Notes: generated by a model from the sequence alone, not told the origin. Positions 8,806 through 52,929 are shown, counted from the stretch's first letter. The stretch is 64,000 bases of DNA from an uncultured Bacteroidia bacterium (GCA_902791945.1 CADAXR010000002.1:9-64008); one strand, 5' to 3'. Made by a program: numbers and translations.

Positions 8806-10449
8806 CTAAAAACCAATTCTCCTCCTACTGGTTCCGTTTCCTATAACCTCTTCAGAACAATAAGCGAGAATATCGTTAAAACCAGGCTCTGTTGAGTCGA
8901 TGATGGATTGAATCTCTCTTTTTCGGACAATGTTTTCGATCTGTCCTCCAGAAAAGTCGAAATCGTTGGCCAGAATCTTGACTTCAGCTTCTGAAAGGCT
9001 GGGCAGCATGGCCCTCCAGATGGATGCCCGGGCTTCTCTGGAAGGCTTTTCGAAGCATATCTTATAAAGGAATCGTCTCTCAAATGCCTTATCCAGATTG
9101 GTGGTCAAATTCGTGGTTGCAATGAGGATTCCGTCAAGGTCTTCCATCTCCTGCAGTATAATATTCTGGATGGAATTCTCCATCTTGTCAACAGCCTCTT
9201 CGGCTCCTTCCCGACGAATGCCGAAAATGGCGTCCGCCTCATTGAAAAGAAGAATTGGAATAGGTCCTCCGCCTTTTACGGCCTCACGGTATTTCTCGAA
9301 AACCTTCTTGATGTTCTTCTCACTTTCGCCAACCCAGCAACTCTTTATTTGAGAGACATCGACAATGTAGAGGTCCCTGCCACTTTCCCTGGCAATCTGG
9401 TATACCGTCTCGGTTTTGCCGGTACCAGGTCCGCCGTAGAATAAGCAGGAGAAACCAGTCCGAAGACCCTTATTCTTCATCTTCTCTCGGATTTCATTGA
9501 GGCGTTTTTCACTCATGAGCTCTTTCAGTTGTGCAACTTGCCGTTCTTCAGCCTGATTATAAAAAAGAGACTTTTCCGTGATATCTGTCGCTACAACTTT
9601 TTTTGAAGCAGATATTTTCTGGTCCTGTTTCTTGATGCCGCCCACATCGGCAAATATCTCTTCTTTCACATCGTCATTTAATTTGAAATAATCGCGTTCC
9701 ATAAAACTGTTCCTGCCGGCATATTCAAGGATTCCATCCTTTTGAAGTTTGAGGCGCTCCAGTTTATAGTCTGACCGGAGTCGGGCGAGGTCTTCATCAG
9801 AGAAATAATCTTCAAAATCGTGCCATCCAACCTTATCATCATCTTCGAAATAATATCGATAGATCATTCCATAGAGAACCGCTGTTTCCTTGGTAAGAAG
9901 CTCTTTGCTTATTCTTGTAATGGCCTTGGAAACGCTATTCTTGGGGTTTAACTCCATTAAATTGTTAAGGTCATCAACCATCTCACTAGTTGTGCATTGC
10001 TCTTCTTCCAACAAGTCAAGCCCCTTCTTTATGCGGACTAAAAGTGCCATTGCATCCAGACCTGTTGTCGGTTCTGGCTCCAGAGGCTTATTGTCGATTA
10101 GGGCGTTTAAAACCCTGCGAGGTATTGTTATTTCCCTTTTCTTGTCGATTCTGATATAGCCTATTGCCCGTAGGTCTTCCAGTTCCTTATTATAGCTTAG
10201 ATACTTAAGAAAACTAATTCCGAGAGACATAGCAAGCGCCTGTCCTGAAACTGAAGACGAAGATGTCTTGCGGGTAATTGCAGTAAGGAGCACCGTTTGT
10301 ATAGGGGAAAGTCCAAGCTCTTTCCCTAGGATGTCAATATCTGGAGCAGCCTTTTCCATAAGGTCAAAAGACATTCCGCTCCTCTGGTTCTCTTCGTCGT
10401 GCATTTTGTCTACAATGCTGCACATCCTGTCAATAATCGTCATTTCCAT
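8806..10449 (-). CDS. AAA+ ATPase (classic AAA family) with a long N-terminal non-ATPase region
   Basis: 547 aa. Walker A is FYGGPGTGKTE, Walker B is ILLFNEADAIF, and a second region of homology is ATTNLTTNLDKAFERRF. Confidence 0.8.
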   Translation of the reverse strand: MEMTIIDRMCSIVDKMHDEENQRSGMSFDLMEKAAPDIDILGKELGLSPIQTVLLTAITRKTSSSSVSGQALAMSLGISFLKYLSYNKELEDLRAIGYIRIDKKREITIPRRVLNALIDNKPLEPEPTTGLDAMALLVRIKKGLDLLEEEQCTTSEMVDDLNNLMELNPKNSVSKAITRISKELLTKETAVLYGMIYRYYFEDDDKVGWHDFEDYFSDEDLARLRSDYKLERLKLQKDGILEYAGRNSFMERDYFKLNDDVKEEIFADVGGIKKQDQKISASKKVVATDITEKSLFYNQAEERQVAQLKELMSEKRLNEIREKMKNKGLRTGFSCLFYGGPGTGKTETVYQIARESGRDLYIVDVSQIKSCWVGESEKNIKKVFEKYREAVKGGGPIPILLFNEADAIFGIRREGAEEAVDKMENSIQNIILQEMEDLDGILIATTNLTTNLDKAFERRFLYKICFEKPSREARASIWRAMLPSLSEAEVKILANDFDFSGGQIENIVRKREIQSIIDSTEPGFNDILAYCSEEVIGNGTSRRRIGF

Positions 10450-16635: not shown

Positions 16636-18513
16636 ATGTCAATCGTTATCAATAACAACATGGAAGTCGATGGAATAGTACTCGACTCCACCAACTACGA
16701 ATTCATGCAGGCACTGGCCATCGCTCAGTCCACGGATAAAAACCTCTATCTGACAGGCAAAGCAGGCTCCGGAAAAACCGTCTTCCTCAAATACCTCAAG
16801 AAGGTGTGCAGGAAAGAGATGGTTATCCTCGCTCCTACGGGCGTGGCCGCCATCAATGCCGGAGGCCAAACCATCCACTCTTTCTTCGGCCTGGCACCGT
16901 CCATTTATGTCCCCAACGATAGACGGTTCTCAGACTTCATCAAGGCTGAGGACATCGAAAAGGCCAGCGTCCTGGACAACTATCATTTCAGTGGCGAGAA
17001 AGCGCAGATGATCTGCCACCTGGATATGATCATCATCGACGAGGTCTCCATGGTTCGTGCCGATTTGATGGATGCCATCGATATGCTGCTCCGGATGTAC
17101 CGCCGGAATAACCTCCCATTCGGCGGCGTCCAGATGCTATTCATTGGCGATGCCTTCCAGATTCCTCCTGTAGTCGAGAAAAAAGACAGTGGGCTGCTCT
17201 ATCAGTTCTATCAGAGCGAACACTTCTTCAATGCCCGCGTTCTACGGGCCAATCCGCCACTCTACCTGGAGCTGAAGAAGATCTATCGTCAGAAGGACCA
17301 GGCGTTCATTGAACTGCTCAACCGCGTAAGGGTGAACGATATGCGAATGAAGGACTACCAGCTGCTGAACTCCCGCTACCAGCCGAAATTCCGTCCCGAA
17401 GATAGAGACCGCTATATCTTGCTGGCCACAACCAACAAAAAAGTGCTTGCCTACAACAACAATCGGCTGTTCGAACTACCCGGCGAAGAGAAAGTATACG
17501 TAGCCGATGTCGAAGGCGATTTCTCTCCAAAGGATAGCCCGGCTGAAGTTGAGCTTCACCTAAAAGAGGGCGCACAGGTGATGTTTGTCAAGAACAACTG
17601 GGATAAGGAATATTACAATGGACAAATCGGCCGCATTGCTGCAATGGACAGCCAGCAGATTATTGTTGAAGTTGAGGATGCAGACGGCGATACCAGAATC
17701 ATCAACGTGGCCCGTGAAATCTGGGAAAAGGTGGAATATGTTTGGGACGATGAGGAGGAGTGTGTGAAGGAGACAACCGTCGGTAGTTTCATGCAGTTCC
17801 CGCTCAAACTTGCCTGGGCTATCACGGTCCACAAGAGCCAAGGGCTCACCTTTGAGAAAGTGATAGCCGATATCGGCGATTCCTTTGCGGCCGGTCAGGC
17901 ATACGTCGCCCTCAGTCGATGCACCTCTCTCGAAGGGCTTGTCTTGATCAGTCCTGTCACGCCGATGAGTATCCGCACAGACCGCTACGTCGTTGAATTC
18001 TCCAAAACGGAGAGTCCAGAAGATGACATCATCGAAGAGATATCTTCCGCGGACGAAAACGACCTCCCTAATGTAGAAACGGTTGATGTCCTTGTCAACG
18101 TGTTGCGCTCTCTGGATGAAGAGAGATTCAAATTTGAAACAGACGATAGCGCTTATTCCCTCATTAAGATTCCGGCCGATCTGGATGGTTACTTCGTCGT
18201 TGGCATCACCAACATGTTCTACGACCCGGACGACGTTGATGGATTTGGATCTTTTGAAATCCATCATAAGGAGACAGGAAGGACACTCACGTTCTATTAC
18301 CCGTATCCGGATGAGGATCAAGTAGTGTTCGGAGAGAATATGTACACCTTCATCTCAGAGCCCATCCCCATGAAGGACATCCTGGGTGAAGACTATGTCT
18401 ATGACAAGTCCAAAGAAGATTCTATCACCATAACCATTTGTCACAACCTGAAGGAGAAATATCAGGACATCCACGCCATCTGCAGTATAGCTGAAGCACT
18501 GGGAAAGGAATGA
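16636..18513 (+). CDS. PIF1/RecD-family (SF1B) DNA helicase with ~150-aa C-terminal extension
   Basis: 625 aa. Motifs are GKAGSGKT, ILAPTGVAAINAGGQTIHSFF, IIIDEVSM, FIGDAFQIPPV, TVHKSQGLTF and YVALSRC. Confidence 0.85.
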   Translation: MSIVINNNMEVDGIVLDSTNYEFMQALAIAQSTDKNLYLTGKAGSGKTVFLKYLKKVCRKEMVILAPTGVAAINAGGQTIHSFFGLAPSIYVPNDRRFSDFIKAEDIEKASVLDNYHFSGEKAQMICHLDMIIIDEVSMVRADLMDAIDMLLRMYRRNNLPFGGVQMLFIGDAFQIPPVVEKKDSGLLYQFYQSEHFFNARVLRANPPLYLELKKIYRQKDQAFIELLNRVRVNDMRMKDYQLLNSRYQPKFRPEDRDRYILLATTNKKVLAYNNNRLFELPGEEKVYVADVEGDFSPKDSPAEVELHLKEGAQVMFVKNNWDKEYYNGQIGRIAAMDSQQIIVEVEDADGDTRIINVAREIWEKVEYVWDDEEECVKETTVGSFMQFPLKLAWAITVHKSQGLTFEKVIADIGDSFAAGQAYVALSRCTSLEGLVLISPVTPMSIRTDRYVVEFSKTESPEDDIIEEISSADENDLPNVETVDVLVNVLRSLDEERFKFETDDSAYSLIKIPADLDGYFVVGITNMFYDPDDVDGFGSFEIHHKETGRTLTFYYPYPDEDQVVFGENMYTFISEPIPMKDILGEDYVYDKSKEDSITITICHNLKEKYQDIHAICSIAEALGKE

Positions 18514-20364: not shown

Positions 20365-20378
20365 GGTGAAAAATAAAG

Positions 20379-20466
20379 CGGAGAGAGCGAGATTCGAACT
20401 CGCGATACCCTTTTGGGGTACACACGCTTTCCAGGCGTGCCTCTTCAGCCACTCGAGCATCTCTCC
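20379..20466 (-). tRNA. tRNA-Ser (anticodon GGA), class II with long variable arm
   Basis: Minus strand reads GGAGAGATGCTCGAGTGGCTGAAGAGGCACGCCTGGAAAGCGTG..GCGAGTTCGAATCTCGCTCTCTCCG. The anticodon loop is CTGGAAA and the T-loop is TTCGAAT. Confidence 0.9.
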
Positions 20467-20688
20467 TTGGTTCCGTCCGGCTGAACGGGACTGCAAATAT
20501 AGGTATTTTTTGCTTTGATGCAAGCCGGCAGTTCAGAAAAATCAACTATGCTGTCATTTCGACCAAGCGAAGCGCGCGGAGAAATCTCTACCTCTGCATT
20601 GGTCCAGTACTGCATCTCGTATTTCCGGGTCAGGCGGCAGAACATGTCGATAAGATTCACAGAAGGCATGTAGCAGCCTATAATCGGA

Positions 20689-20840: not shown

Positions 20841-21479
20841 TTAAACGTTCAGCTCAAAGCGGACATTTTCTTCGCCGGCCAGAAGCTTGCGCGTGTTCTC
20901 GATGTTCGTCTCATATATGTGGACGTTTCCGAGGTTCAGCGTTATTGACTGCAAAGGCAAGTCAATTTGCCGGGAAATGAGATATAAATGGTAAATATCA
21001 GAAGGAAGACCAAGATTTGCGTCACTGCTCCGCTGGTACGCGGAAATAACCAGCTCGCCGCAATCTATCTGGAACTGTACGAGGCTGAGGCAAGGCGCTT
21101 GATTCGTCTCTGCGTCCGTGGAGCCAAGGAACAGGACGTAATTCTTGGAGTTCCGTTTCTCTGCGTTTATCTTCCGGATCAGCCCGGGAAGTTTCTCAAA
21201 GTAGGTGGGATAACTGTTTATGAGGATTGAGCCGCAATAATCCCACCAGCTGATTCCGATGTCGCGGTATTTCTCAACGTTTCTTTCGCCCTGCATAAAG
21301 AGTTCCAGCTCACCGCGCAGTTTTTTTCGGGCGATGGAATGGCTCTCGAAGATGTCGAGCAAATCCGCGGGCGTCATCGACATCTGTTGATTCAGAAGGT
21401 ACTTGATGTTGCCTTTCTTGTTTGTCTGGGTCTTACCTTCGGCAAGAATCTTCCCCAGGATACTGTAATACTGATTCAT
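20841..21479 (-). CDS. Thymidylate-synthase-family (ThyA-like / pyrimidine C5-modifying) enzyme, short form
   Basis: 212 aa. It aligns with ThyA landmarks: MNQYYSILGKILAEGKTQTNKKG (cf. [23 protein letters not shown]), ELELFMQGERN, the catalytic-Cys block APCLSLVQFQ, YQRSSDANLGLP and GNVHIYETN. The RTGTGT phosphate-binding segment is replaced. Confidence 0.65.
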   Translation of the reverse strand: MNQYYSILGKILAEGKTQTNKKGNIKYLLNQQMSMTPADLLDIFESHSIARKKLRGELELFMQGERNVEKYRDIGISWWDYCGSILINSYPTYFEKLPGLIRKINAEKRNSKNYVLFLGSTDAETNQAPCLSLVQFQIDCGELVISAYQRSSDANLGLPSDIYHLYLISRQIDLPLQSITLNLGNVHIYETNIENTRKLLAGEENVRFELNV

Positions 21480-23781: not shown

Positions 23782-24704
23782 TCTGCCACCTTATAAGCAC
23801 GTCCTTTGACCACCAGGTTATTGAGGGCATAATAGCCGCTGTATGGCCTTCGATAGCCCTGCACGGGCTGGAAATTCTCATTGTCGCCGGCGGACACCTC
23901 TACGGAAGTGATGTCAGCCACCTCCACGCCCTCTACGGCCTGGATGGCTGCCATGAGGTCGGAGTTTCGATACTCTCCGTTGAACGGTAACTTGGAAACG
24001 ACACCGCGCACTGCCTCGTCGATGACATCGGTCCCTGCATCGTCGATGGGCGACAACCGAATGCGGCGGTATTCCTGCTCCGCGTCTTCACCGGAAAGAT
24101 ACTCGGCATTCAGGATGCTGGGGTTGTAGAGAACCAGGAGCTCCACGTTCATCTTATCGGCGGGGACGTTGAGTACCCGGATAGCCACGCCTGCATCCTT
24201 GATCTGCGAGAGGTAATACTGGAGCCCGGCAAGTTCGTTGTCCGTCAGCTGCGTGGGGCGTCCATTGGCGTTATTCTTGGCCACTTTGATATAAACCAGG
24301 GTGTCCACCTCGTTTGCCACGGCGTACTTCACAACCTTCCGTTTTTCAATCTCGCTTTCCGTCATCCCGGTGGTATCGTAGTGGTCAGCAACCACGATAC
24401 CATCAGAGGCGACCAGTTTGCAGTTGTGCATATAGTCAAGAGTCTTGGCTACATACCAACGGAGGGTATGAGGACGCAGGGCCTCGATCTTTTCCTCCAC
24501 CTCGGATTTATGGCGGTCAAACAGCGACTCCACGACCCAGATGCAGGATGCGACCACATAGAACAGGATGCTTTCGATGCTGACCGGCGAAAAAGCCTTG
24601 TCGAAAGTGGCGCTGTCGTCAAGGCCATACGCGGAGCGCACGACATCCTGGGCAAGGAAGGCGGAAGCGATTTCCGCCTTGATTTCGTTGATTGAGCGTG
24701 CCAT
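23778..24704 (-). CDS. Phage baseplate-module protein (possibly J-like wedge)
   Basis: 308 aa. The position corresponds to Mu gp47 / P2 gpJ. The call rests on position only. Confidence 0.3.
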   Translation of the reverse strand: MARSINEIKAEIASAFLAQDVVRSAYGLDDSATFDKAFSPVSIESILFYVVASCIWVVESLFDRHKSEVEEKIEALRPHTLRWYVAKTLDYMHNCKLVASDGIVVADHYDTTGMTESEIEKRKVVKYAVANEVDTLVYIKVAKNNANGRPTQLTDNELAGLQYYLSQIKDAGVAIRVLNVPADKMNVELLVLYNPSILNAEYLSGEDAEQEYRRIRLSPIDDAGTDVIDEAVRGVVSKLPFNGEYRNSDLMAAIQAVEGVEVADITSVEVSAGDNENFQPVQGYRRPYSGYYALNNLVVKGRAYKVAE

Positions 24705-24716
24705 AATCCGCAGGGC

Positions 24717-25067
24717 TTAGAGGTTTGCGATAGCGGTGCGGTACTGCTCAAAGTCGATTTCCGGGGCGGTCCCGCCGGCATAGCGGACGGCAAGGTCAGC
24801 GCGGATGTCATCTTCCACCTTTTCGGGCGTCGGAATCTCCGGATAAACCAGGATGGAGAAGGCCACAAGGTCCGTGGGGACCTCGCGGTACTGGACCTCT
24901 TCACCCTCCTGGGGCTGGCCGCGGCGTCCCTTGCGGGAACCCTGGACCGGGACTTTGTTAACAACAGGTACGAAATCAAACCGTACAATACAACCCTTTT
25001 TGCGACCGGTGTTGAATTGTTCAACGGCGACGGCTTTGTCAGCCGCGCAATAATCTCGTGCTGTCAT
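24717..25067 (-). CDS. Phage baseplate-module protein, unknown function
   Basis: Start taken at internal Met (MTARDY..). The longer track ORF would overlap the RT by 150 nt. Confidence 0.3.
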   Translation of the reverse strand: MTARDYCAADKAVAVEQFNTGRKKGCIVRFDFVPVVNKVPVQGSRKGRRGQPQEGEEVQYREVPTDLVAFSILVYPEIPTPEKVEDDIRADLAVRYAGGTAPEIDFEQYRTAIANL

Positions 25068-26322
25068 TCGGCAATTTGTGTTTGTTGAAGGATTTGTGTC
25101 TTTGCTTGCGGAGCGCAGTCTTGATACGCTCACGGTGTTTATACTTCTTTTTGACGGCGAGCTTTGAAAAGTCGCCAGTGGAATAGACATACTTGAACCA
25201 GGCCGGGCTTATCATACCGATAAAGCGGCGGCGCAGGCCGTATTCGTTGAAGTGGGCCATAAGGCCCAGATAAGAGTTGATGCAGCTGACGAAATACTCC
25301 ACCTGTTTCCTCATCCGGTCCGGGTGGCTTTCCGCGAAGCGGTTAAAGAAGAAAACGCGGTCATAGGCAGCGCCTACAGTGCGGTTCGACAGGTAGAGCC
25401 GGTCAAACTTCACTACGCCGCCGACCCACTTGACGCCCTTTGTAAAGTGCTGTATCTGGTATTTCTTCGGGTTGATAGTGACCTCTGCCGTCTTCCACAG
25501 GTATTCCCGCAGAATGGGCATTGCAAGCAGCATCTTCTGCTCATCCTCATCGACGGCCGCGCAGTCATCCACGTAGCGGTCGATAGAGATGCCCAGGGTC
25601 TCCTGCAAGTAATGGTCGGCATCGTTCAGAAGGAAGTTGGCCACCAGCTGGGAAGGGAGGTTGCCGATGGGCAGGCCGTAGCCATCCGGGACGGTGAACA
25701 GGCTTTTGTTTGCCGGCAGGCTGTCCCACTCCGCAGGATCCCCGCGCAGGACACAGTTCTTTTCCGGCGCATTAAGCAACGTGACGCGGCAGAGGTAGAG
25801 CAGCGTATCAAGGTCATCCTCTTTATAGGATTCTTTCAGGAACGCGCAGAGTTTATCGCATACCAGCAGGCGGTTAATCGACATAAAAAAGCCCTTCAAA
25901 TCCCATTTGAGCACCCAGCAGTCGCGGGTGTAATCCTGGGACTTGGCTTTTATGAGGTCGCGGAGATAGTAAATGCTGTTGAGCGTTCCTTTATCCTTCC
26001 TGCAGTTGAAGGACGCATCGATGAAGATCTTCTCAAGCAGGGGCTCAATACGGAGGGCAATCCAATGATGGACTATGCGGTCACGGAAATCAGCAGCGAA
26101 GACTTCGCGGTCAACAGGGCGGTGAACAACAAAAGCGATGGATTTGCCTGGCTCATAGACGGCTCCGTTTATCTCATCCCTGAGCGCTACCAGGTTCTGC
26201 ATATAGTGCATATCAAAGGCTACACAGCTGGGCGTGCTGGCCTTGTTGCGCTTGCAGTCCTGGTATGCGTCCAGGAGACTTGAAAAACTTATGCTGATAT
26301 TTCCCATTGTTGTGTTTTCCAT
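25039..26322 (-). CDS. DGR reverse transcriptase
   Basis: It has the DGR-type motif LPIGNLPSQ and the catalytic RYVDDCAAV. The TR lies immediately upstream. Start taken at MENTTMG; the first 28 codons of the track ORF are the translated TR. Confidence 0.9.
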   Translation of the reverse strand: MENTTMGNISISFSSLLDAYQDCKRNKASTPSCVAFDMHYMQNLVALRDEINGAVYEPGKSIAFVVHRPVDREVFAADFRDRIVHHWIALRIEPLLEKIFIDASFNCRKDKGTLNSIYYLRDLIKAKSQDYTRDCWVLKWDLKGFFMSINRLLVCDKLCAFLKESYKEDDLDTLLYLCRVTLLNAPEKNCVLRGDPAEWDSLPANKSLFTVPDGYGLPIGNLPSQLVANFLLNDADHYLQETLGISIDRYVDDCAAVDEDEQKMLLAMPILREYLWKTAEVTINPKKYQIQHFTKGVKWVGGVVKFDRLYLSNRTVGAAYDRVFFFNRFAESHPDRMRKQVEYFVSCINSYLGLMAHFNEYGLRRRFIGMISPAWFKYVYSTGDFSKLAVKKKYKHRERIKTALRKQRHKSFNKHKLPNDSTRLLRG

Positions 26323-26336
26323 CTTCAAATGAAATT

Positions 26337-26424
26337 CGGAGACCGCCCGCACGTAGTTGTTGTTGTTACGATTGTTGTTGTTCGTGTTACCATTGTTGAG
26401 GTTCACGTTCCACGCGCACCACTC
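26337..26424 (-). repeat. DGR template repeat (TR), 88 nt
   Basis: Aligns without gaps to VR1 and VR2. It has 29 adenines on the coding strand, mostly in AAC/AAT codons (..NVNLNNGNTNNNNRNNNNYVRAVS). Confidence 0.9.
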
Positions 26425-26535
26425 CGTGCCCGGTATTCTGCGGTTGCCTTGTTCTTAACTCTAAATGAGAGTACGCAGACCTTTTCATTAAGAAAATTGC
26501 TCCCGCCCGGAAGCCGTGGCCGCCGGGCCACCCGC

Positions 26536-26937
26536 TTACACACTCGTAATCATTCTGGCTGTGGCTTTTCTCCAGCCGCCTAATTGTTGGGAAATATCAG
26601 TCATAAGTTCAGCTATATTCGTTTGTTTCTGCAACGGCAGCACCTGATGCCTGTTACAAAGGGATATGTATGTATTGAGCACCGTGAATTGACTGAGCGC
26701 CCTGTCAAGGTGCGCAAGCCTTGTTTTAGGCGCTTTCTCATCATAAGCATAGACAATCCTTGCCAGAAGGTCCATTGCTACGTCCAGCGTCTTTTCCCAC
26801 AGCACACGGCGCCATTTGACCGGCACGTTGTCGGCCTGGGCGCACAGGGTGTCTGCGAGCTCGAAGGCCCTCTTGTAAACGCGCTGGTCGGCGGCTGTCT
26901 GCTGAGTTCTGTTGCTGTCTGTCATACCCGGATGCAA
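26536..26937 (-). CDS. avd: DGR accessory variability determinant (Avd)-like four-helix-bundle protein
   Basis: 133 aa, basic and helical. It sits between the target gene and the TR-RT, as in canonical DGR cassettes. Confidence 0.65.
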   Translation of the reverse strand: MHPGMTDSNRTQQTAADQRVYKRAFELADTLCAQADNVPVKWRRVLWEKTLDVAMDLLARIVYAYDEKAPKTRLAHLDRALSQFTVLNTYISLCNRHQVLPLQKQTNIAELMTDISQQLGGWRKATARMITSV

Positions 26938-27017
26938 AGTTACTGATTTTCTGATTCTCCCAAAAATTTTTCGCTCCGCGTCCCTCCTAAGAGAGACGCG
27001 GAGGAAAGGCTGAAAGA

Positions 27018-28151
27018 TTAAGAAGAATAATCATGAAAAGCGGAGACCGCACGCACGAAGCCGCGGTCGCTACGACTGCCGTTGCCCGTGCCACCATCGC
27101 CGAGGCGCACGTAGCACGCGCACCACTCATCATACTGGGTGGATGACCAATACCAGTTATTATCGAGCAGGTCAAACTCAAGCCCACCTTCATCATTGGC
27201 ATCTGTCATAATAGCGTTGATTGCAGCCTTATTCAGATACATCAAGTACAGTTGGCCGGCAGACGGAAGGAACAGCTGCCTGTTATACGCTGCCCAGACA
27301 TTGGCGCAATACTCAGCCGCTTTTGCGTCCCGGCAGAACTCCAGAATCTTTGCGGTGTTAAGATTCCCGTTATAATCTGCGCGTGCAGCAGCTTGAGCCG
27401 CTTCCCAGTCCTCGCAAGTGTGATCATTGAATGCCGGAAGTGCAGGGATAAGCTTGCCGTAATAGCGATTACCCACCCAAGGCATCGTGCTGTCTGCCTT
27501 GGTGTTTTGGTCAATGGCAAAGGCCGTTTCGGCCGTTGCCACAAGAATACTGTCGTAGTAATCTTCATCAGTGGTTTCCCCCTCCTGCATATCCCACTCC
27601 TGGGCGGAAGAGTGGTCCGAACTGTATCCACTTGTTACATAAGGGACATACCTATATTGATCGGTATCCTCGTTATAGTAACCTACGCGGCCGAGCATAA
27701 ACACCCCGATAGGGAAATGCCAAAGCTCAATAGTCCTTGCATCCTGGCAGGCCTCGTAGGTAAGCTGGAAGGATGCGGAAAGGCCGGTAAGCTTTGAGAA
27801 TACAGCATACTTGAATCCCTTGTAAACCTCAAAGGATACTTCGCCGTTTTCATCCACTTCCACCTCCTTACGGGGCACCGCGAAGTTCGGCACGCCACTA
27901 TTGCAGAAGATGTCGATGTAAACCTTGGCGCCGGCCACGCTGACGCGCTGGGTGCCATCGTAGGCATTGACCTTGACGGTGACACGTTCCGTCTCCAAGT
28001 TGCCGAGGGCCTCAATTATTTCGCCCGAAGCCTCCACCAGGGCGAGCATCGTGCCGCCTACCATCTGAGCGGTCACGCTCTTTGCCATAATCGCGTCGCG
28101 GATGGTAATCGCAGTCTCGCGATGGGCAGCGGTGTTAAATTCCTGTTTCAT
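27018..28151 (-). CDS. DGR target protein 1 (tail-module, DUF1566-like/CLec-type C-terminal variable domain)
   Basis: 377 aa. The C-terminus reads FLPSAGQLYLMY..NNWYWSSTQYDEWCACYVRLGDGGTGNGSRSDRGFVRAVSAF and contains VR1. Confidence 0.85.
   Translation of the reverse strand: MKQEFNTAAHRETAITIRDAIMAKSVTAQMVGGTMLALVEASGEIIEALGNLETERVTVKVNAYDGTQRVSVAGAKVYIDIFCNSGVPNFAVPRKEVEVDENGEVSFEVYKGFKYAVFSKLTGLSASFQLTYEACQDARTIELWHFPIGVFMLGRVGYYNEDTDQYRYVPYVTSGYSSDHSSAQEWDMQEGETTDEDYYDSILVATAETAFAIDQNTKADSTMPWVGNRYYGKLIPALPAFNDHTCEDWEAAQAAARADYNGNLNTAKILEFCRDAKAAEYCANVWAAYNRQLFLPSAGQLYLMYLNKAAINAIMTDANDEGGLEFDLLDNNWYWSSTQYDEWCACYVRLGDGGTGNGSRSDRGFVRAVSAFHDYSS
27041..27128 (-). repeat. DGR variable repeat 1 (VR1)
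   Basis: 88 nt aligned to the TR by hand gives 22 mismatches. 20 are at TR adenine positions and 2 are at non-adenine positions. Confidence 0.9.
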
Positions 28152-28163
28152 TGTAAAAAAGTT

Positions 28164-28523
28164 TTAAGCCATTTGTACATCAAACTGATTGGTAAATATC
28201 TTAGCCAAAGTGACCGGGGCGGCCTTATCTGCGGCCACGACAACGGACTCAATACCGGTAGGCTCTACGGGTATCGTTATGAGCGAAAGGACCAGGGCGT
28301 CGCTGGCGGCCACCGCCGGGATGACGGAATCGGCCTCATACCGGCGCACCACCTGTTTGTCGAGCAGATCCGCGAGCTCATAATCAAGCACGCGACCCAC
28401 CGCCAGATCGTCGGTGATGGCGAGGCCGTTGCGCTCCGCGATGGCGAAGACGGCTTCCAGGGACCCGCACGCCTGCAGGGCTATGTCGGCAATACATTGC
28501 CTGTCTGATACTGCTATCTTCAT
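28164..28523 (-). CDS. Phage tail/baseplate-module protein, unknown function
   Basis: 119-aa ORF, contiguous with its neighbours. Confidence 0.3.
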   Translation of the reverse strand: MKIAVSDRQCIADIALQACGSLEAVFAIAERNGLAITDDLAVGRVLDYELADLLDKQVVRRYEADSVIPAVAASDALVLSLITIPVEPTGIESVVVAADKAAPVTLAKIFTNQFDVQMA

Positions 28524-28801
28524 TACTCAACTTTTATTGTCGATTCGTCTTCAATACTCACGCGGTTAACCGGAATGCCGGCAGCCCGGCACATGTCCTT
28601 TGCAGCGGCGCACCACAGGCGCGAGCCCGGCCCGTGGCGCATCCGGGCCACCTCAGCCCCGATAAGGGGGACCTCGCGGAATTCACCGCGCCCGGCGCGG
28701 ATTACGTGCTCGATGGCCTGCTGCGAGGTCTCGCCCAGGGCAAGAGCCCCGCCCTGTATGAGCAGGTCCCCCGAATCAACGTCTATAATCAAGCCTATCA
28801 T
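28523..28801 (-). CDS. Phage baseplate-module protein, unknown function
   Basis: 92-aa ORF with overlapping start and stop codons. Confidence 0.3.
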   Translation of the reverse strand: MIGLIIDVDSGDLLIQGGALALGETSQQAIEHVIRAGRGEFREVPLIGAEVARMRHGPGSRLWCAAAKDMCRAAGIPVNRVSIEDESTIKVE

Positions 28802-37037: not shown

Positions 37038-37568
37038 CTATTGTTCTATGCCTATCTCCTTGAGCCAGGAGGCGACATCAAAGGACGGACAAGCCTTAGC
37101 TACATTGGGAAAGTCCCGGTGACCTACGATGCGGACGTTGGGATGCTTCTTGTGGAATTCTCTTACATAGTCCGCCATCGCCTTTTTCTGGGCGTCCGTC
37201 CTGGTGTCTGCCGCTATCTTGTGGCCCCTGGAATCCGTTGCGATGACATAGCGCTTCTTACCGGTCTTCGGGTCAGTTTCGACCTTGCCGGCATACCCGC
37301 CGACATAGACGATGTGCCTGCTGACACTGTTGTATCCGGCTACGCCGTTCGTGATCTCCCAGGGATCCACCCAGGCGTCTTCGTTGTTGTCAACGAGTCT
37401 TTCCTTCTTGCCGTCCAGATGGAAAAGGTCTGTGTATCCTACCTGTTTCCATCCGCGCCCCTTGGGTTCAGGAGCTGTATGCCACGCACGGATTTCGTCG
37501 GCTGTCACCTCGCGTCCTTCGCACGTGGCAGTACAGTGAATAACAAGGTATTTCAGCTCCCTTTTCAT
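37038..37568 (-). CDS. N-acetylmuramoyl-L-alanine amidase (Amidase_2/PGRP-type endolysin)
   Basis: 176 aa. Motifs are VIHCTAT, GWKQVGY, GYNSVSRHIVYVGG and GHRDFPNVAKACPSFDV. Confidence 0.85.
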   Translation of the reverse strand: MKRELKYLVIHCTATCEGREVTADEIRAWHTAPEPKGRGWKQVGYTDLFHLDGKKERLVDNNEDAWVDPWEITNGVAGYNSVSRHIVYVGGYAGKVETDPKTGKKRYVIATDSRGHKIAADTRTDAQKKAMADYVREFHKKHPNVRIVGHRDFPNVAKACPSFDVASWLKEIGIEQ

Positions 37569-39661: not shown

Positions 39662-39732
39662 TTGTCTTATAAAAATGTTGCGGCGGATCTTGCCGGGGCT
39701 CACCGCCGCAACGGTCGCAAAAAGGGGTTTTG

Positions 39733-39804
39733 TAGCGGAGGCGGGGATCGAACCCGCGACCTCAAGGGAATGAACCTTGCGAGCTACCTCTGCTCCACTC
39801 CGCG
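39733..39804 (-). tRNA. Phage-encoded initiator-like tRNA (anticodon CAT) with atypical features
   Basis: CGCGGAG TG GAGC AGAGGTA GCTC G CAAGG TTCATTC CCTTG AGGTC GCGGG TTCGATC CCCGC CTCCGCT A. It folds as a 72-nt cloverleaf with a C1xU72 mismatch and an A11:U24 pair. U37/C38 in the anticodon loop are unusual. Confidence 0.75.
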
Positions 39805-40424: not shown

Positions 40425-41960
40425 ATGGCGTCCCAGGTATCCAGGAAAGAAGCCCTGCAGGAGTGGAAGCACTGGTGCGAAACGGTGCAGAACAATACGG
40501 TCGTGCCCACCCAGGAGACGACCGCGCAGAAGCGTGCCCGCATCAAGCGCCTGCTGTCTGATTACGCCGCTTTTGTCAATTACTACTTCCCCCACTATAC
40601 CGATGACCTGGCCACCGGCAAGCACACCGAGTGCGCCCCGTTCCATATCAAGGCTGCCAACACCATAAAGAAAAACCGGACTATCCAGTACGGCGCCAAG
40701 TGGGCCCGAGGCCACGCCAAGAGCACCCACTTCGACATCTTCATACCCATGTGGCTGAAAGCCATGAAGGAACTGTTTTGCATGGTCCTGGTGGGCAAGT
40801 CCGAAGAGAATGCCAACACCCTGCTCGGAGACATTCAGGCGGAACTGGAGTTCAACCAGCGGTATATTGCCGACTTCGGCCCGCAGAAATGCGAAGGGTC
40901 CTGGCAAGACGGGAAATTTATCACCAGGGATGACGTGGCTTTCTTCGCCCGCGGCCGCGGGCAGTCCCCGCGAGGGCTCCGGCACAAGAGCCACCGCCCC
41001 GATTACGTGGTCATAGACGACCTCGACGATGACGAGCTGGTGAACAATCCGGAGCGTGTCGCAAGGCTCACGAAATGGGTCAAGGAGGCCCTTTTCGGAA
41101 CGCTTGACGGCGGGCGCGGGCGCTTCATTATGGTCGGCAACCTCATCGGCAAAAACAGCGTTCTGGCGAATTTCCTTGCATCCAAGGGCGTAGTCGTTTC
41201 GGAGGTCAACGCCATCGACAAAAACGGGGAACCGTCCTGGAAAGAAAAGTGGACCATCGAAGAAATCCAGGCACAGGCAAAGTTTATGGGTTATATCTCC
41301 TTTCAGCGGGAAATGATGAATAACCCCATAACCGAGGGCGCCGTCTTTCGCAACGATTGGATCAAGTGGATAAAGCCGCTGCCGCTCGCGAAATACGACT
41401 GCCTTGTGGCCTACTGCGACCCCTCTTTCAAGAGTTCCACCAAAAACGACTTCAAGGCCATCAAGCTGTGGGGCAAGATCGGCACGGACCTTCACCACCT
41501 CAAGGCGTTTGTGCGGCAGTGCTCCGTGGCGGAGATGGTCCGCTGGTTCTACGACCTGCACGAGACGATGATTGCGGCCGGCGCTGTCTGTGAGTATTAC
41601 ATCGAGGCGAATTTCCTGCAGGATACCCTGCTTGATGAGTTCACCAGGGAAGGCAAACTCCGGGGGTATCAGCTACCCATCCGTGCGGACCGGCGCAAGA
41701 AACCGGACAAATTCCAGCGCATCGAAGCCATTTCCCCGCTGTGGGAACGTGGCTTTGTGTACTACAACGAAAAGATGCGCGACGACCCGGACATGCAGGC
41801 CGGGCTGGAGCAGACACTTGCCTTCGAGAAGGGTATGAGCGGGCACGACGATGCCCCGGATGCCGACGAAGGCGCCATCTATATTCTTCAACAGCGTGTG
41901 CGTCAGCGGGAATTTAAGCCCGTTTTCGGTATGCGCAAAACCTCCAAAAACGTATGGTAG
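40425..41960 (+). CDS. Terminase large subunit
   Basis: 511 aa. It has an ATPase region (VLVGKSEENA.., VVIDDLDDDE) and a C-terminal nuclease region (DPSF.. / HDDAPDA). Confidence 0.8.
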   Translation: MASQVSRKEALQEWKHWCETVQNNTVVPTQETTAQKRARIKRLLSDYAAFVNYYFPHYTDDLATGKHTECAPFHIKAANTIKKNRTIQYGAKWARGHAKSTHFDIFIPMWLKAMKELFCMVLVGKSEENANTLLGDIQAELEFNQRYIADFGPQKCEGSWQDGKFITRDDVAFFARGRGQSPRGLRHKSHRPDYVVIDDLDDDELVNNPERVARLTKWVKEALFGTLDGGRGRFIMVGNLIGKNSVLANFLASKGVVVSEVNAIDKNGEPSWKEKWTIEEIQAQAKFMGYISFQREMMNNPITEGAVFRNDWIKWIKPLPLAKYDCLVAYCDPSFKSSTKNDFKAIKLWGKIGTDLHHLKAFVRQCSVAEMVRWFYDLHETMIAAGAVCEYYIEANFLQDTLLDEFTREGKLRGYQLPIRADRRKKPDKFQRIEAISPLWERGFVYYNEKMRDDPDMQAGLEQTLAFEKGMSGHDDAPDADEGAIYILQQRVRQREFKPVFGMRKTSKNVW

Positions 41961-42196
41961 AGAAAATCAAACAGTTTTTCAAGGCGGTGGTATTCGCCGC
42001 CCGTTTCCGCCACCAGGTACGCAAGGCCAATAGAATTGCCAAGTACACCGGGGAAAGGCGTTTCGTCATCGTGCTCGACGGGAAACCCTACTGCGTGAGC
42101 AAGCGGAAGATCCGCGCCCTCACCGCCCAGGGCGTCTATAAGAAAGGCGTAAAGCCGGAGGATATTATCAAAGAGGCAATCTATTATACCAAATAG
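41954..42196 (+). CDS. Small phage protein, unknown function
   Basis: 80-aa basic ORF overlapping the terminase stop. Confidence 0.35.
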   Translation: MVEKIKQFFKAVVFAARFRHQVRKANRIAKYTGERRFVIVLDGKPYCVSKRKIRALTAQGVYKKGVKPEDIIKEAIYYTK

Positions 42197-42200
42197 CCGA

Positions 42201-42629
42201 ATGTTCCTGCAGACAGAAGACTACAGCGTCGTAACCAGTCCGGATGACCTCACCGTCATCACCCAAAGCAGCGAAGAAATCCGCCAGAAGGCGGAGCGTA
42301 TCGCCGTTGAAGAGATTGCCGGTTACGTCCGCTCACGTTACGACATCGATGCGGCCTTTGCCGCCGAAGGGGAAGACCGGAACCCGCTGCTTGTGCAGCT
42401 GACCGTCAGCATCGCCCTGTATTACCTTGGAATGTGGCTGCCGCAGTTCATGGGGAACGACACCAGGCAGACGCTATATGACAACGCGATTTCACGCCTC
42501 AAAGACATCCAGAAAGGCGCCTTTACCCCGGACTTCCCGAAATATCAGGAAGGGGACGGCGGCAGCGGTTCCGGATCCGGTGACGTGATGAAATTCGGGT
42601 CTATGCCCCGCCAGGGATACGACTATTAA
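42201..42629 (+). CDS. DUF1320 (Mu gp36)-like head-completion protein
   Basis: 142 aa. The N-terminus MFLQTEDY..IRQKAERIAVEEIAGYVRSRYDI resembles the gp36-like family. The call is at motif level only. Confidence 0.4.
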   Translation: MFLQTEDYSVVTSPDDLTVITQSSEEIRQKAERIAVEEIAGYVRSRYDIDAAFAAEGEDRNPLLVQLTVSIALYYLGMWLPQFMGNDTRQTLYDNAISRLKDIQKGAFTPDFPKYQEGDGGSGSGSGDVMKFGSMPRQGYDY

Positions 42630-42651
42630 CCAACATTCAAACGCTTATCGA

Positions 42652-43920
42652 ATGGCTTTCAAATTACCTTTCTTCCATAGGTCGGCACCATCCCCGGCGC
42701 CCGAACAGATAACCCTGGAATCCCTTTTGCTCGCCGCCAGGAAAAACAACGACGAAGGCGGCAGCGTCCAGAAACGCAAGAGCCTCCTTCTACTCCTGGA
42801 CCAGAAGACGCAGAGCCTCACCAAGCAGGACGTGGCCAAGTGGCGCGCAGCGTGGCAGCAGGCCCTGAATGTAGAGAACCCGCGCCGTGGCAACCTATAT
42901 TCCATCTATACGGACGCCCTGGTGGATCTGCACCTTACCGGCTGCATATCGCAGCGCGTGGGCAAAACCCTCCTGAAAGCCTTTGTCATTAGGGATGCCA
43001 AGGGGAATGAGGATGAGGCGGCGCAGAAGACCTTTGAAAGCCAGTGGTTCTACGATTTCATCGCTGACGCCCTGGATAGCCGTTTCTGGGGACACTCGCT
43101 CATCCAGCTGGGGGACGTCATCGTCGATGACAACGGCGTGCGCCGGTTCTCTGACGTGGAGCTGGTGCCGCGCCGGCACGTCATCCCGGAGTACGGGGTG
43201 CTGCTCCGCGAGCCGGGCGACGACATCAAGCGCGGAATCGACTTCCGCAGCGGTCCCATATCGGACTGGTGCGTGGAGGTCGGCGACCGCTATGACCTGG
43301 GACTGCTGCTGAAATGCGCCCCGCACTCCATATCTAAAAAGAACATGACGGCCTATTGGGACGTCTTCGGTGAAATCTTCGGTATGCCCATCCGTATCGG
43401 CAAGACCACTTCGCAGAACCAGGATGACCTCAAGCGGGTGGAGAACATGCTTGAGAACATGGGCGCCGCCGCCTGGGGCCTCTTCCCGGACGGCACCGAC
43501 ATCGAGATAAAGGAATCAACCAGGGGCGATGCCTACAACGTCTATGACAAACGCATCGACAGGGCCAATTCCGAAATTTCCAAGGGCATTCTCAACCAGA
43601 CGATGACCATTGACTCCGGCAGCTCGCTCTCGCAGAGCGAGACGCACCTTGAAGTCTTCGAGAACGTCTGCGCAGCCGACGCCAAACTTATCAAGTACAT
43701 CGTCAACGACCGGCTCATCCCCAAGATGATCAAGCACGGGTTCGACCTCAAGGGCCGCACCTTCGATTGGGATGACGCCGCCACTTATTCCCCGGCCGAG
43801 CAGCGCGAGATCGAGCGCGTCATCCTCCAGTATTACCACGTGGATCCAAAGTATTTCCAGGATAAATACAAGATCACCATTACCGGGGAGCGTGACGATT
43901 CCGGCAGTTTTTTCGAGTAG
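42652..43920 (+). CDS. Portal protein (Mu gp29/DUF935-like)
   Basis: 422 aa, positioned between the terminase and the MuF-like gene. Confidence 0.7.
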   Translation: MAFKLPFFHRSAPSPAPEQITLESLLLAARKNNDEGGSVQKRKSLLLLLDQKTQSLTKQDVAKWRAAWQQALNVENPRRGNLYSIYTDALVDLHLTGCISQRVGKTLLKAFVIRDAKGNEDEAAQKTFESQWFYDFIADALDSRFWGHSLIQLGDVIVDDNGVRRFSDVELVPRRHVIPEYGVLLREPGDDIKRGIDFRSGPISDWCVEVGDRYDLGLLLKCAPHSISKKNMTAYWDVFGEIFGMPIRIGKTTSQNQDDLKRVENMLENMGAAAWGLFPDGTDIEIKESTRGDAYNVYDKRIDRANSEISKGILNQTMTIDSGSSLSQSETHLEVFENVCAADAKLIKYIVNDRLIPKMIKHGFDLKGRTFDWDDAATYSPAEQREIERVILQYYHVDPKYFQDKYKITITGERDDSGSFFE

Positions 43921-44039
43921 GGGGTGATGACAAACAGGCGGAGCAGAACCCCAAGGCGGCAAAGGCCGAAGACAACGCCATAAAGTCCTATTACAGGCTC
44001 TTTGACCGGGCCGTCGGCGGATTATATGCCGAGGACCTG

Positions 44040-45632
44040 ATGAAGCTTGCACAGGGCAAGGAAAAGCCCAATATCGCGTTTAACCCGGATGTTATGCGCG
44101 CCGTGCTGCGCCGCCTGTACAATACCGGCCGTGTAACTCCGCAAATGCTCACGACGCCAGAGTGCAAGGCCCTTATCAATGAGACTTACAAGGTACTCAA
44201 CGGCGCCATTGGCCAGTCCATAACTCAGGAGACCCCAGCGGAATTGACACACGCCCTACGGGAAAATGCCTTCATATTCTCCGGATTCAAAGCCTACCAT
44301 AATCTCCGTGAAATCGGGCTGTCCCTAACAGAGGAAGACGGCACCCTCAAGCCCTTCGCCAAGTTCGCGGAGGATGTAAAAGGGGTAGATGCCCGTTATA
44401 ACCAGCGATACCTTTACGCAGAGTATAACCACGCCGTGCACACCTCGCAGATGGCGGTCAAGTGGAACGACTTCACTAAAGACGGAGATGAATACAATCT
44501 CCAGTACCGGACCGCCGGGGACGAAAGGGTGCGCTCGGATCACGCCCGCCTTGACGGGGTGACGCTCCCGCCATCCGATAAGTTTTGGAACAACTATCTG
44601 CCGCCCAACGGCTGGAACTGCCGCTGCCAGGTAGTCCAGGTTCTCAAGGATGACTACCCTGAGAGCGACAGCGATGCCGCCACCCAGTGGGGGGATGAAT
44701 GCACCGCGGACCCCAAGGCGCAGATATTCCGCTACAATGCTGGCAAGGAGATGGAGATCTTCCCGCTCAAGCACCCGTACTTCAAGGCTCCGGAGTCAGT
44801 TAAAAAGGTTGTAGAGCAATTAGCGGAGGAATCCGTAGAGGATTCAGGAAAGAGGATAAAGGAAATGGTGGGGGAAATGCCAGAATATCTATCCAAGGAG
44901 GAAAAAGAGGCTATCGCTAAGAACATCATTGAAATTGAAAAAAGCCTCTCAATCAAGAAAGGCAAGGTGATGACTGTCGAACAGGCCGATAAGCAGAGCG
45001 CAAACCCGAAGTATGTGCCCGAGTACATCCCCGATCCCAAGGGAAAGTATATTATCGACGGCGTTGTTTCGAGCAGAAACCCCAATTTCGTCAAAAGTCG
45101 CGATATACCCTACCATATTAACTGCCAAACGTGCGCTCCCGCTTATATGCTCCGCTTGCGTGGATTAAAAGTGTCGGCAAAAGGTAATACGTCCGGGTCA
45201 AAATCCGAATACCTTAGCTCGGGGATGAGGACTTGGGAAAAATGGCTCAACCCCGATGGGACACAAGCTAAGCATGCGAGTCTTGTTGATTGGATGAAGG
45301 GTAAAGAGTATAAAGAAATGACGCCCAAACGTTACAAAGAGTTCTTTGATGAAGTCTGTAAGGAAGAGGGAGTTTATGAATTATCCATCGGGTGGAAGCG
45401 AGGCTATGGACATGCGACAATCCTCCAGCGCTTCAAAGATGGGGAGCTAAGGTATATTGAACCACAACGAGATAACTCCGAAGGTTCAGGGCGCGAGAGT
45501 AGGAACGTGGATTATTTGTGCCAAAACGGGGTGCGGATTGGCACGAGAATCCATGCCTGCCGAGGTATAATGAGGATTGACAACAAAATTATCAACCCTA
45601 AATATATGGATATTTTTGAGGGAGAAACTTAA
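44040..45632 (+). CDS. MuF-like minor head protein fused to a ~250-aa C-terminal Cys/His domain
   Basis: The MuF/SPP1-gp7 signature is YRTAGDERVRSDHARLDGV..PPNGWNCRCQV. The C-terminal extension contains YHINCQTCAPAY .. GYGHATIL .. YIEPQRD. The start is uncertain because the frame is open back to 43896. Confidence 0.7.
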   Translation: MKLAQGKEKPNIAFNPDVMRAVLRRLYNTGRVTPQMLTTPECKALINETYKVLNGAIGQSITQETPAELTHALRENAFIFSGFKAYHNLREIGLSLTEEDGTLKPFAKFAEDVKGVDARYNQRYLYAEYNHAVHTSQMAVKWNDFTKDGDEYNLQYRTAGDERVRSDHARLDGVTLPPSDKFWNNYLPPNGWNCRCQVVQVLKDDYPESDSDAATQWGDECTADPKAQIFRYNAGKEMEIFPLKHPYFKAPESVKKVVEQLAEESVEDSGKRIKEMVGEMPEYLSKEEKEAIAKNIIEIEKSLSIKKGKVMTVEQADKQSANPKYVPEYIPDPKGKYIIDGVVSSRNPNFVKSRDIPYHINCQTCAPAYMLRLRGLKVSAKGNTSGSKSEYLSSGMRTWEKWLNPDGTQAKHASLVDWMKGKEYKEMTPKRYKEFFDEVCKEEGVYELSIGWKRGYGHATILQRFKDGELRYIEPQRDNSEGSGRESRNVDYLCQNGVRIGTRIHACRGIMRIDNKIINPKYMDIFEGET

Positions 45633-45853
45633 TTATCAAATTGGGCAGTAATATCCAGGGCCTCAAAGCCTGTAACTGAAATTGCGCTGCCGTCTTTATA
45701 CAAGTAAACAAAAGGGAAACCGGTATTAGAACCATCCGGGAAGAGAAACAAGAAGGCATCCTGCCCCTCGTACTTGCCAAGGTGCTCAAAGTGCTTCCCA
45801 AACCGCTTGATAAGTTCGCCAGCTTCTTTTATGACTGCTTCCGGTACTTGCAT
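45629..45853 (-). CDS. Small protein encoded antisense to the head operon (moron; possible immunity partner)
   Basis: 74 aa from the ATG (MQVPEAVIKEAGELIK..). A TATCTTTG -7 box (complement of 45860-67) lies 6 nt upstream. Its stop overlaps the stop of the MuF-fusion gene. Confidence 0.45.
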   Translation of the reverse strand: MQVPEAVIKEAGELIKRFGKHFEHLGKYEGQDAFLFLFPDGSNTGFPFVYLYKDGSAISVTGFEALDITAQFDN

Positions 45854-45892
45854 ACGGCACAAAGATACAAAAAATAAAGCATAAACCGAAAA

Positions 45893-52833: not shown

Positions 52834-52929
52834 TTTATTGTTCCTTGACTGTCTTGCTCCCCGTCCTGGTATCGCTCCAGACAAAGCCCTAAGCCTTCAC
52901 GGGGAAATCCTTAAGTTTCGCCCTGCGGG

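Follow-up and report, generated by a model that had tools for sequence, protein, structure and literature searches.

Within the 64,000 nucleotides of DNA from an uncultured Bacteroidia bacterium that were analyzed here (GCA_902791945.1 CADAXR010000002.1:9-64008; the window), a cassette on the minus strand carries, in this order, a target gene, the gene avd (accessory variability determinant), a template repeat (TR) and a gene for a reverse transcriptase (RT). These are the parts of a diversity-generating retroelement (DGR). To our knowledge, no other natural means of targeted protein hypermutation is known in prokaryotes. Phages of gut Bacteroidales are a major reservoir of these elements. An original prediction, made from the sequence alone, had described the cassette as a complete DGR with one variable repeat (VR), and its three open reading frames (ORFs) are indeed found in the places and on the strand proposed: target 1 (T1) at 27018-28151, the Avd-like gene at 26536-26937 and the RT at 25039-26322.

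The RT (427 aa) is of the DGR type, as had been predicted from the motifs LPIGNLPSQ and RYVDDCAAV, both of which are present. The signature of DGR RTs, [I/V/L]GxxxSQ as opposed to QGxxxSP (PMC7826257), occurs as IGNLPSQ at aa 219-225 (25648-25668), and YVDD lies at aa 250-253 (25564-25575). The best match in the PDB is bRT, the RT of the Bordetella phage DGR (8ub7, E 2e-22, 83 bits), which is ahead of other solved relatives by about 50 bits, with retron and group II RTs at 1e-7 or weaker. When the two proteins are aligned, IGNLPSQ falls on IGSLTSQ, and R72 and I219 fall on R74 and I181 of bRT, residues that promote adenine mutagenesis (PMC7826257). The RT also matches RVT_1 in Pfam (E 8e-15), and it scores far under the curated cut-offs when compared with the group II, retron and Drt models. 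An exact-sequence look-up of the RT product gave no match; the gene caller probably chose a different start codon.

The small ORF described as Avd-like encodes 133 aa from a TTG codon, or 129 aa from an ATG at 26925. Both bAvd and DivGenRetAVD match it along its entire length, though under the curated cut-offs. The orthologue in a related locus (L005) is annotated PF22296, and size and position also fit Avd; the protein is probably a diverged member of this family.

The C-terminal domain of T1 (377 aa), which follows N-terminal helices and a pair of beta-sandwich domains, is DUF1566/lectin-like and ends in the first variable repeat, VR1 (27033-27128, minus strand; codons 342-373). The DUF1566/C-type-lectin-like tip that had been proposed for this target is supported by a weak Pfam match to Lcl_C (E 0.007), by PHROG, and by homology to a second target, T2, and the fold predicted for it. 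The AF2 model of T1 has a pTM of 0.79. A Foldseek search with this model gave pilin/Ig-like beta-sandwich matches for the N-terminal domains only, and none that inform the C-terminal domain. There are 242 homologues of T1, of about 377 aa, many of which are annotated PF07603. Taking the T2 model together with the domain that T1 shares with it, the VR lies at the C-terminus of a lectin-fold target.

Adenine-specific variation at two targets

When the TR and VR1 were re-aligned computationally, the gap-free alignment that had previously been made by hand was recovered: 88 nt (26337-26424 against 27041-27128), whose 22 mismatches include 20 at TR adenines. There are 29 adenines in this stretch of the TR, and the enrichment on which the prediction had staked its reading is pronounced (Fisher exact p = 5.7e-11). 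A repeat finder independently identified a longer gap-free direct repeat of 96 nt (26329-26424 against 27033-27128), in which 22 of 24 mismatches are at A (p = 5.1e-12). The translations previously given for the TR and VR1 were both found, and the TR is packed with AAC/AAT codons as described, holding 13 AAY codons together with ACG and TAC. All but one of its 32 adenines are in codon position 1 or 2, which is expected because the template is AAY-rich. Judged from the VR2 of a relative, homology at the 5' end can be extended to at least 26431, such that the TR spans 26329-26431 on the minus strand with a 96-nt core at 26329-26424. The gap between the end of the TR and the ATG of the RT is 6 nt. 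The TR is in frame with the RT ORF (a 455-aa ORF from a GTG codon), and we take this to be a coincidence: in L005 the distance from the TR to the RT start is 70 nt, which is not a multiple of three.

The site for initiation of mutagenic homing (IMH) in VR1 (GTGCGTGCGGTCTCCGCTTTTCA, 27034-27056, minus strand) is a GC-rich block followed by CT. Its counterpart in the TR, IMH* (26330-26352, minus strand), is non-identical, with AA in place of CT at 26335-26336. This difference is the same in every VR of every relative, and it is therefore a fixed IMH*/IMH distinction and not the result of mutagenesis. Across the lineage, the GC-rich block is followed by ...GAATTTCA in the TR and ...GCTTTTCA in the VR. 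The arrangement of GTGCGGGCGGTCTCCG followed by CT in all VRs, and by AA in all TRs, is kept in 17 of 17 family loci. Stop codons lie 5-6 codons past the ends of both VRs. VR1 of the window has two non-adenine differences from the TR, at 27084 and 27051, neither of which is found in the other four VRs of the closest elements. One changes TGG to TGC and puts Cys where at least 90% of 40 homologues have Trp, and the other is a private G-to-T change within the GC-rich IMH.

A scan of the whole window with the TR, ignoring TR-adenine positions, returned exactly one further copy. This second variable repeat, VR2 (52951-53046, minus strand), differs from the TR at 22 positions, 19 at A and 3 elsewhere, compared with 31 non-A mismatches for the next best site in the window, and its IMH (52952-52974) is intact. 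VR2 forms the C-terminal part of T2 (52930-53658, minus strand), a protein of 242 aa with a short helical N-terminus and a DUF1566/lectin-like domain, about 26 kb from the DGR cassette. A single TR serves two targets, and the original prediction covered only half of the system. Likeness between T1 and T2 is confined to the C-terminal ~106 aa (30% identity, E 1e-8), and the two have phrog_4245 in common. The AF2 model of T2 has a pLDDT of 90.6, and its best fold match in the PDB is the C-terminal (DUF1566) domain of Legionella Lcl (8q4e, E 1.5e-4), followed by C-type lectins. Nearly all of the 53 homologues of T2 carry PF07603, and T1 and T2 homologues co-occur on the same contigs.

The T2 gene is the fifth of the early operon and lies directly upstream of a MuA-like transposase gene, with only 3 nt between it and the preceding early gene. 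The operon is divergent from the repressor gene and the structural genes are all far off. This place is common to five of five related elements, in each of which the order is an S24 repressor, two small genes, T2, MuA-like and MuB-like. No signal peptide was found in the T1 or T2 family, a search of the PADLOC defense families with both targets gave no match, and T2 matched none of the structural-protein profiles. The standout feature of the system is the lineage-wide retention of a small, signal-less lectin-domain target within the early transposition operon. The 96-nt spacer between T2 and the transposase gene (52834-52929, minus strand) is 100% identical between the window and R22, a relative described below, compared with ~94% for the adjacent genes, and is predicted to form a long stem (CCCCGT...ACGGGG).

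Relatives were retrieved with the TR pattern in which adenines are replaced by N, which returned two elements: an IMG/VR contig (IMGVR_UViG_3300010270_000361, numbered L001, L002, and L020) and R22, a 38.7-kb metagenome contig (L003, L004). The same pattern had no match in the GTDB species-representative genomes, so this exact TR is in no representative genome. R22 carries VR1 with the TR, and VR2, at a spacing of 25.9 kb as in the window. In an alignment of eight sequences from these three elements (90-98% identical), the three TRs are identical and the five VRs are all different. TR adenines account for 84 of the 90 TR-VR differences, and 27 of the 28 adenines in the mutagenized stretch are variable across the five VRs. 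Compared with VR1 of the two near-identical elements, VR1 of the window has changes at 18-24 TR adenines and just 2 elsewhere, and the window's VR2 differs from that of R22 at 21 TR-adenine positions and 2 others.

Outside the cassette, the IMG/VR element is ~70-90% identical to the window, and the region 25804-28150 is essentially identical save for VR1. Along the 1.1-kb target gene, 26 differences fall in the bin that holds VR1 (24 at TR adenines), with two mismatches in one 150-nt bin elsewhere. The VR is nearly the sole difference between the two target genes, which suggests that homing in the lineage was very recent. Viewed as a block, the DNA that begins at the start codon of T1 and runs as far as mid-RT is ~100% identical in the window and L001/L020 except for VR1; it looks as if a target-avd-TR-5'RT module was recently exchanged by recombination, with one breakpoint inside the RT gene.

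Similar patterns extend to more relatives. In clusters at 90% identity, no two distinct sequences of T1 or of T2 have the same VR, with changes that map to AAY, TAC, and ACG codons; the T2 cluster, for example, holds six distinct sequences with six different VRs. The 5' edge of VR2 is dimorphic, reading either DR, or EW as in the TR, a trace that a cDNA junction fixed at 3' and variable at 5' would be expected to leave (PMC5758913). Across 17 family loci, mismatches occur at 253 of 526 adenine sites and at 12 of 964 other sites, a ~40-fold enrichment at adenines; L025 and L027 (no convincing TR/VR pair in a gap-free scan) and L011 and L013 (partial pairs only) were left out of these statistics. 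In a more distant relative from an NCBI metagenome-assembled genome (MAG), whose RT, T1, and T2 are 62%, 55%, and about 47% identical to those of the window, the TR has diverged at non-adenine positions, and mismatches to its own two VRs are at A in 11 of 12 and 20 of 20 cases. The diverged TR still matches both of its own VRs, and the TR and both VRs therefore evolve in concert. The hosts that GTDB records name belong without exception to the Bacteroidales (Cryptobacteroides, Rikenellaceae, Alistipes, Paludibacteraceae, Bacteroides, Muribaculaceae, and Prevotella). From comparison among the elements, the DGR is apparently active, with recent turnover in the lineage.

Cis elements and RNA structure beside the template repeat

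A hairpin with a 13-bp stem and 4-nt loop is predicted ~30 nt past VR1 (26974-27004, minus strand), and is followed by A5T5. Its counterpart in L005 has the same shape and another stem sequence with compensatory changes, and ends in the same CGAAAAA(A)TTTTTGG tail. A GC-rich inverted repeat downstream of the IMH is present in about a third of DGRs (PMC5758913). The hairpin could be such an element, a terminator, or both.

Conservation of the spacer between avd and the TR far exceeds that of the neighboring proteins, and two structures are predicted within it, both on the minus strand. H1 (26505-26528) directly follows the avd stop codon and has ~9 bp with bulges, a (C/U)A(A/C)G tetraloop, and four pairs with compensatory changes. 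H2 (26437-26479) lies immediately upstream of the TR and is a helix of 7 bp (TCTGCG...CGCAGA) around a 5-bp hairpin, with five pairs that show compensatory changes and 100% of cells paired. On 14 family loci, RNAalifold and pair counts gave 99.7% of cells paired in H1 and H2 combined and nine compensatory pairs compared with 0-2 in slid controls; the 14 sequences represent few clades, and independent events are fewer than the cell counts suggest. Between the two helices RNAalifold places an invariant AAUUUUCUUAAUGAAAAGG segment (26480-26498, minus strand), which is predicted to pair with the 3' end of the TR and the RT start region (UUUCA...AGAAG..AU, ~26320-26334). Pairs in this arm (AUUUUCU...UGAAA, enclosing the TR) are invariant or show one-sided change, so covariation speaks neither for nor against it.

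A covariance model of the motif (R1) found it once in the window and also in family loci outside the set from which the model was built. It had no match in Hankyphage. In Bacteroides phages F2 and F4 (L037/L038, 3235-3330) there is a full-length, non-significant match (14.8 bits, E 0.63) that starts 7 nt past the avd stop codon, and a diverged form of the motif may be present in the wider Bacteroidales DGR clade. No RNA family was detected near the TR in Rfam at either gathering or permissive thresholds. These results point to a family-specific structured RNA between avd and the TR. In this respect, it is relevant that in BPP-1 and most Avd-type DGRs the Avd-binding stem-loop is downstream of the TR, and that a duplex between upstream and downstream segments stops cDNA synthesis (bioRxiv 10.1101/2023.10.23.563531). 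In the window, by contrast, the covariation-supported hairpins are upstream of the TR, and no non-coding spacer separates it from the RT gene. The layout of the DGR RNA may then differ from that of BPP-1, and this element absent from Rfam offers a start for comparing DGR RNA architecture beyond that phage.

Alternatively, H1 with the T-run that follows it could be a terminator. A terminator-like hairpin at 26499-26514 (minus strand; GCTTCC-GGGC-GGGAGC followed by AATTTTCTT) reuses the 3' strand of H1, making the two folds mutually exclusive. Transcription of avd could end at this point, or read-through into the TR could be regulated.

Mechanism and alternative readings

All parts of a DGR, with a probable Avd among them, are present at this locus, as are the adenine-specific pattern at both targets and recent turnover between near-identical elements. 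Following the paradigm of BPP-1, an RNA containing the TR and its conserved flanks would be reverse-transcribed by a complex of RT and Avd, which would copy C, G, and U faithfully and place random bases opposite adenine. The cDNA would then replace a homologous VR, with the GC-rich IMH as the 3' anchor and a variable 5' junction. The same TR would have two recipients, VR1 in the 377-aa tail-module protein and VR2 in the 242-aa lectin-domain protein of the early operon, and its 13 AAY codons with ACG and TAC would give about 3e16 peptide variants per target, without stop codons. Diversification would most likely occur during lytic growth, because RT and avd are in the late structural operon, and would be passed to progeny genomes; Hankyphage behaves likewise (PMC12135933). 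The biochemical steps, the timing, and what the two targets bind are inferred.

With high confidence, we read the locus as a complete DGR in the tail/baseplate module of a 35.4-kb Mu-like Bacteroidales prophage, working by canonical mutagenic retrohoming from one TR to two recipients. Several observations weigh against this. Scores for Avd are under the curated cut-offs, at 39.3 bits (E 9.7e-10; cut-off 40) for bAvd in Pfam and 34.4 bits (E 2.2e-8, full length; cut-off 80) for DivGenRetAVD in NCBIfam, and a sequence search of the PDB with Avd gave no match. The lectin domain of T1 is assigned through the weak Pfam match and homology to T2, and not through a direct fold match. No conserved hairpin was found downstream of VR2, and a search of the 220 nt that follow the TR, which belong to the RT ORF, did not reveal a structured spacer like that of BPP-1. 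Furthermore, the G-to-T change in the IMH and the Trp-to-Cys change may make VR1 of the window a poorer recipient or a damaged allele.

These last two changes would also fit a relic, a once-active DGR that is non-functional in the lysogen of the window and whose VRs are frozen records of past homing; the near-invariant position of the lost Trp in the scaffold, and the wide variation of DGR activity among Hankyphage lysogens (PMC12135933), fit such a reading as well. We nevertheless consider it improbable. The ORFs of the RT, avd, T1, and T2 are all intact, and the RT retains its catalytic YVDD and its signature motif. Two other elements have exactly the same TR, the IMH of VR2 is intact, and the prophage has intact ends and a target-site duplication. 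A VR that is nearly the sole difference between near-identical target genes points to very recent homing in the lineage. There is even less room for the idea that the likeness of TR and VRs reflects ordinary paralogy or gene conversion among lectin-domain genes, beside an RT from a retron, group II intron, or defense system. Sub-threshold RT-domain matches to group II, retron, and Drt models are consistent with such an origin, but these are far under their cut-offs and bRT is the best solved relative by a wide margin. Moreover, the TR does not encode a lectin domain, is made of AAY codons, and sits between avd and the RT gene, and Rfam searches detected no intron or retron RNA family. The 40-fold enrichment of mismatches at adenines across the 17 loci effectively refutes this explanation, to which we assign next to no probability.

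The role of T2 is where alternatives deserve comparable weight. It might be a second receptor-binding or adhesion protein of the virion that is encoded in the early region, with both targets broadening the adsorption range, and we hold this tentatively as a real possibility, somewhat short of an even chance. Most phage DGR targets are tail or receptor-binding proteins, and phage DGRs with two targets that are different lectin-domain proteins have been described (PMC10743442); the VR scaffold of T2 is the same as that of T1, and its conserved helical N-terminus could serve as an attachment module. Set against this are the placement of the gene in all five elements between small early genes and the transposase, the 3-nt gap that ties it to the preceding gene, the divergence of this operon from the repressor and its distance from the structural genes, and the lack of a signal peptide or a match to structural profiles. 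These same features would suit an early-expressed, cytoplasmic, non-structural protein, such that the DGR would vary both a tail protein and an intracellular binder, possibly from an RNA whose protein-binding stem-loops are upstream of the TR and which has no downstream non-coding spacer, unlike that of BPP-1. This combined proposal is rather unlikely to hold in full. If it were true, a binder produced together with the transposase as infection begins might follow variable host factors or defense proteins, and T2 would be an intracellular determinant of host range.

We regard the DGR as genuine and as a new, clean instance of an established system; it does not amount to a new kind, because multiple and non-adjacent phage targets and the DUF1566 class of target are already documented (PMC5758913, PMC10743442). 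It is an unusually clean case in that an intact cassette and two targets are accompanied by relatives, both near and far, in which both VRs turn over and the TR co-evolves with them. The reason that certain phage DGRs act on two different proteins is a question left open in the literature (PMC10743442), and T2 makes it testable, as it is small, confidently predicted, conserved in position, and encoded in the early operon and not in the virion module.

The carrier prophage and comparison with known systems

The DGR is carried by a Mu-like transposable prophage of 35,405 bp (20679-56083). Homology with R22 (94-98% identical) ends at exactly these bases, beyond which the flanks differ. A 4-bp duplication, AGCC on the plus strand, flanks the prophage at 20675-20678 and 56084-56087, and R22 is inserted at another site, with a TATC duplication. 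The target duplication of phage Mu is 5 bp. Repeats of AAAACGAAATGTACAA are found at the termini, one at the left end and two at the right, and these are probably transposase-binding sites. The MuA-like transposase gene (50818-52884, minus strand; probable ATG at 52833; phrog_310, E 2e-41) is followed by that of a MuB-like ATPase (49951-50802, minus strand; phrog_296, E 3e-53). Together, the MuA and MuB genes, terminal repeats, short duplications, and differing flanks identify a Mu-like transposable phage. A CI/LexA-type repressor (54741-55484, plus strand; phrog_4, E 8e-16), whose orthologues carry Peptidase_S24, is divergent from the early operon that includes T2.

In the PHROG map, the repressor on the plus strand and the early operon with T2, MuA, and MuB are accompanied by an inverted plus-strand block with terminase, portal, and MuF genes; the rest comprises protease, major head, DUF2586, tape-measure, and two hub proteins, small genes, T1, avd, TR, RT, and three further genes. 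The cassette is downstream of the tape-measure and baseplate-hub genes in a phage of a Bacteroidota host, in agreement with the proposal that it lies in the baseplate/tail region of a Mu-like phage. Pfam gave no match for the small genes flanking the cassette, and the term baseplate module rests on the PHROG hub and tape-measure matches and on synteny. Homologues of Mom and Gam were found in relatives. The packaging block (40425-46953, plus strand), made up of terminase, portal, MuF-like, and three small genes, runs opposite to every other gene of the phage, and AT skew flips with it. The same inversion is present in Hankyphage p00, and is therefore a trait of the lineage and not an assembly artefact. 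The prophage also contains a tRNA-Met gene (39732-39804, minus strand), with the head protease gene on one side and the packaging block on the other.

The architecture had been likened to that of the Hankyphage lineage, and this stands for genome layout, in gene order and the inverted packaging block, and falls for lineage identity. Like the window prophage, Hankyphage p00 is a Mu-like, transposable, temperate Bacteroidales phage. The overall maps agree, and each phage has a thymidylate-synthase-like gene at its right end, a divergent CI-like repressor, and a DGR in the tail module in the order target-avd-TR-RT. In contrast, protein identities are low (TerL 33%, portal 30%, MuF 30%, MuB 40%, MuA 23%, and RT 24%), and T1, Avd, and the tail/baseplate genes have no detectable match in p00. 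Hankyphage also has a single VR of 117 bp in a protein of >2,200 aa (PMC6199706) and no DUF1566 gene upstream of the transposase, and the GC content of the window prophage, about 55%, is a further difference. A megablast search of 24500-28600 against 50,697 phage records gave no match, which rules out identity with deposited Hankyphage genomes. The Hankyphage genus is defined by intergenomic similarity above 70% (PMC12135933), and nucleotide similarity at this level was not found, although the architecture is shared. The prophage represents an undescribed lineage of transposable Bacteroidales phages that is parallel to Hankyphage. Two accessory genes are closer to their p00 counterparts than the 23-40% seen for other shared proteins: a thymidylate-synthase-like gene (20841-21479, minus strand) at 82% identity and an amidase gene (37038-37568, minus strand) at 64%. 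It seems that the two lineages have recently exchanged accessory genes.

Other systems share different aspects of the locus. BPP-1 (mtd-avd-TR-brt) has the same order of target, avd, TR, and RT, a VR at the C-terminus of a lectin-fold protein, an RT with IGxxxSQ and the residues equivalent to R72 and I219, a GC-rich IMH with a non-identical IMH*, and a hairpin after its VR, as after VR1. It differs in that the RT similarity is weak (the 83 bits given above), and in that the window has two targets whose domain is DUF1566 (the CLec2 class) and not Mtd. The closest deposited phage RTs, at 45-48% identity, are those of the Bacteroides uniformis phages F1, F2, and F4, which also have an annotated bAvd and Bacteroidales hosts; unlike the window prophage, these are integrase-type siphoviruses and not transposable phages.

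Phage DGRs with two or non-adjacent targets, such as those reported by Wu et al. (2018) and the nd4/nd12 ‘tentaclin’ phages (Baykov et al., 2023), similarly use one TR for two different lectin-domain proteins, and non-adjacent targets lie within the phage genome at <50 kb from the RT (PMC5758913, PMC10743442). In nd4 and nd12, however, both targets are inside the cassette and one VR is N-terminal, whereas the second target of the window is 26 kb off and conserved in an early operon. The Legionella pneumophila DGR and Lcl-type DUF1566 domains have in common with the window a DUF1566 (CLec2) variable domain, the C-terminal domain of Lcl being the best structural match of T2 (PMC5758913). The Legionella target is a cellular surface lipoprotein encoded on a genomic island, while those of the window are phage proteins without a signal peptide.

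Outside the prophage, a tRNA-Ser gene (20378-20466) is located in host DNA just beyond the right end, and fragments of SusC/RagA are present in the host flanks of the window. The host flank at ~8-20 kb has a lower GC content of 44-51%. Among its products are an AAA ATPase (8806-10449, minus strand), which matches the anti-phage ATPase IteA below threshold, and a helicase that is RecD2/TraA-like (16636-18513, plus strand); the region may be a defense island or another mobile element.

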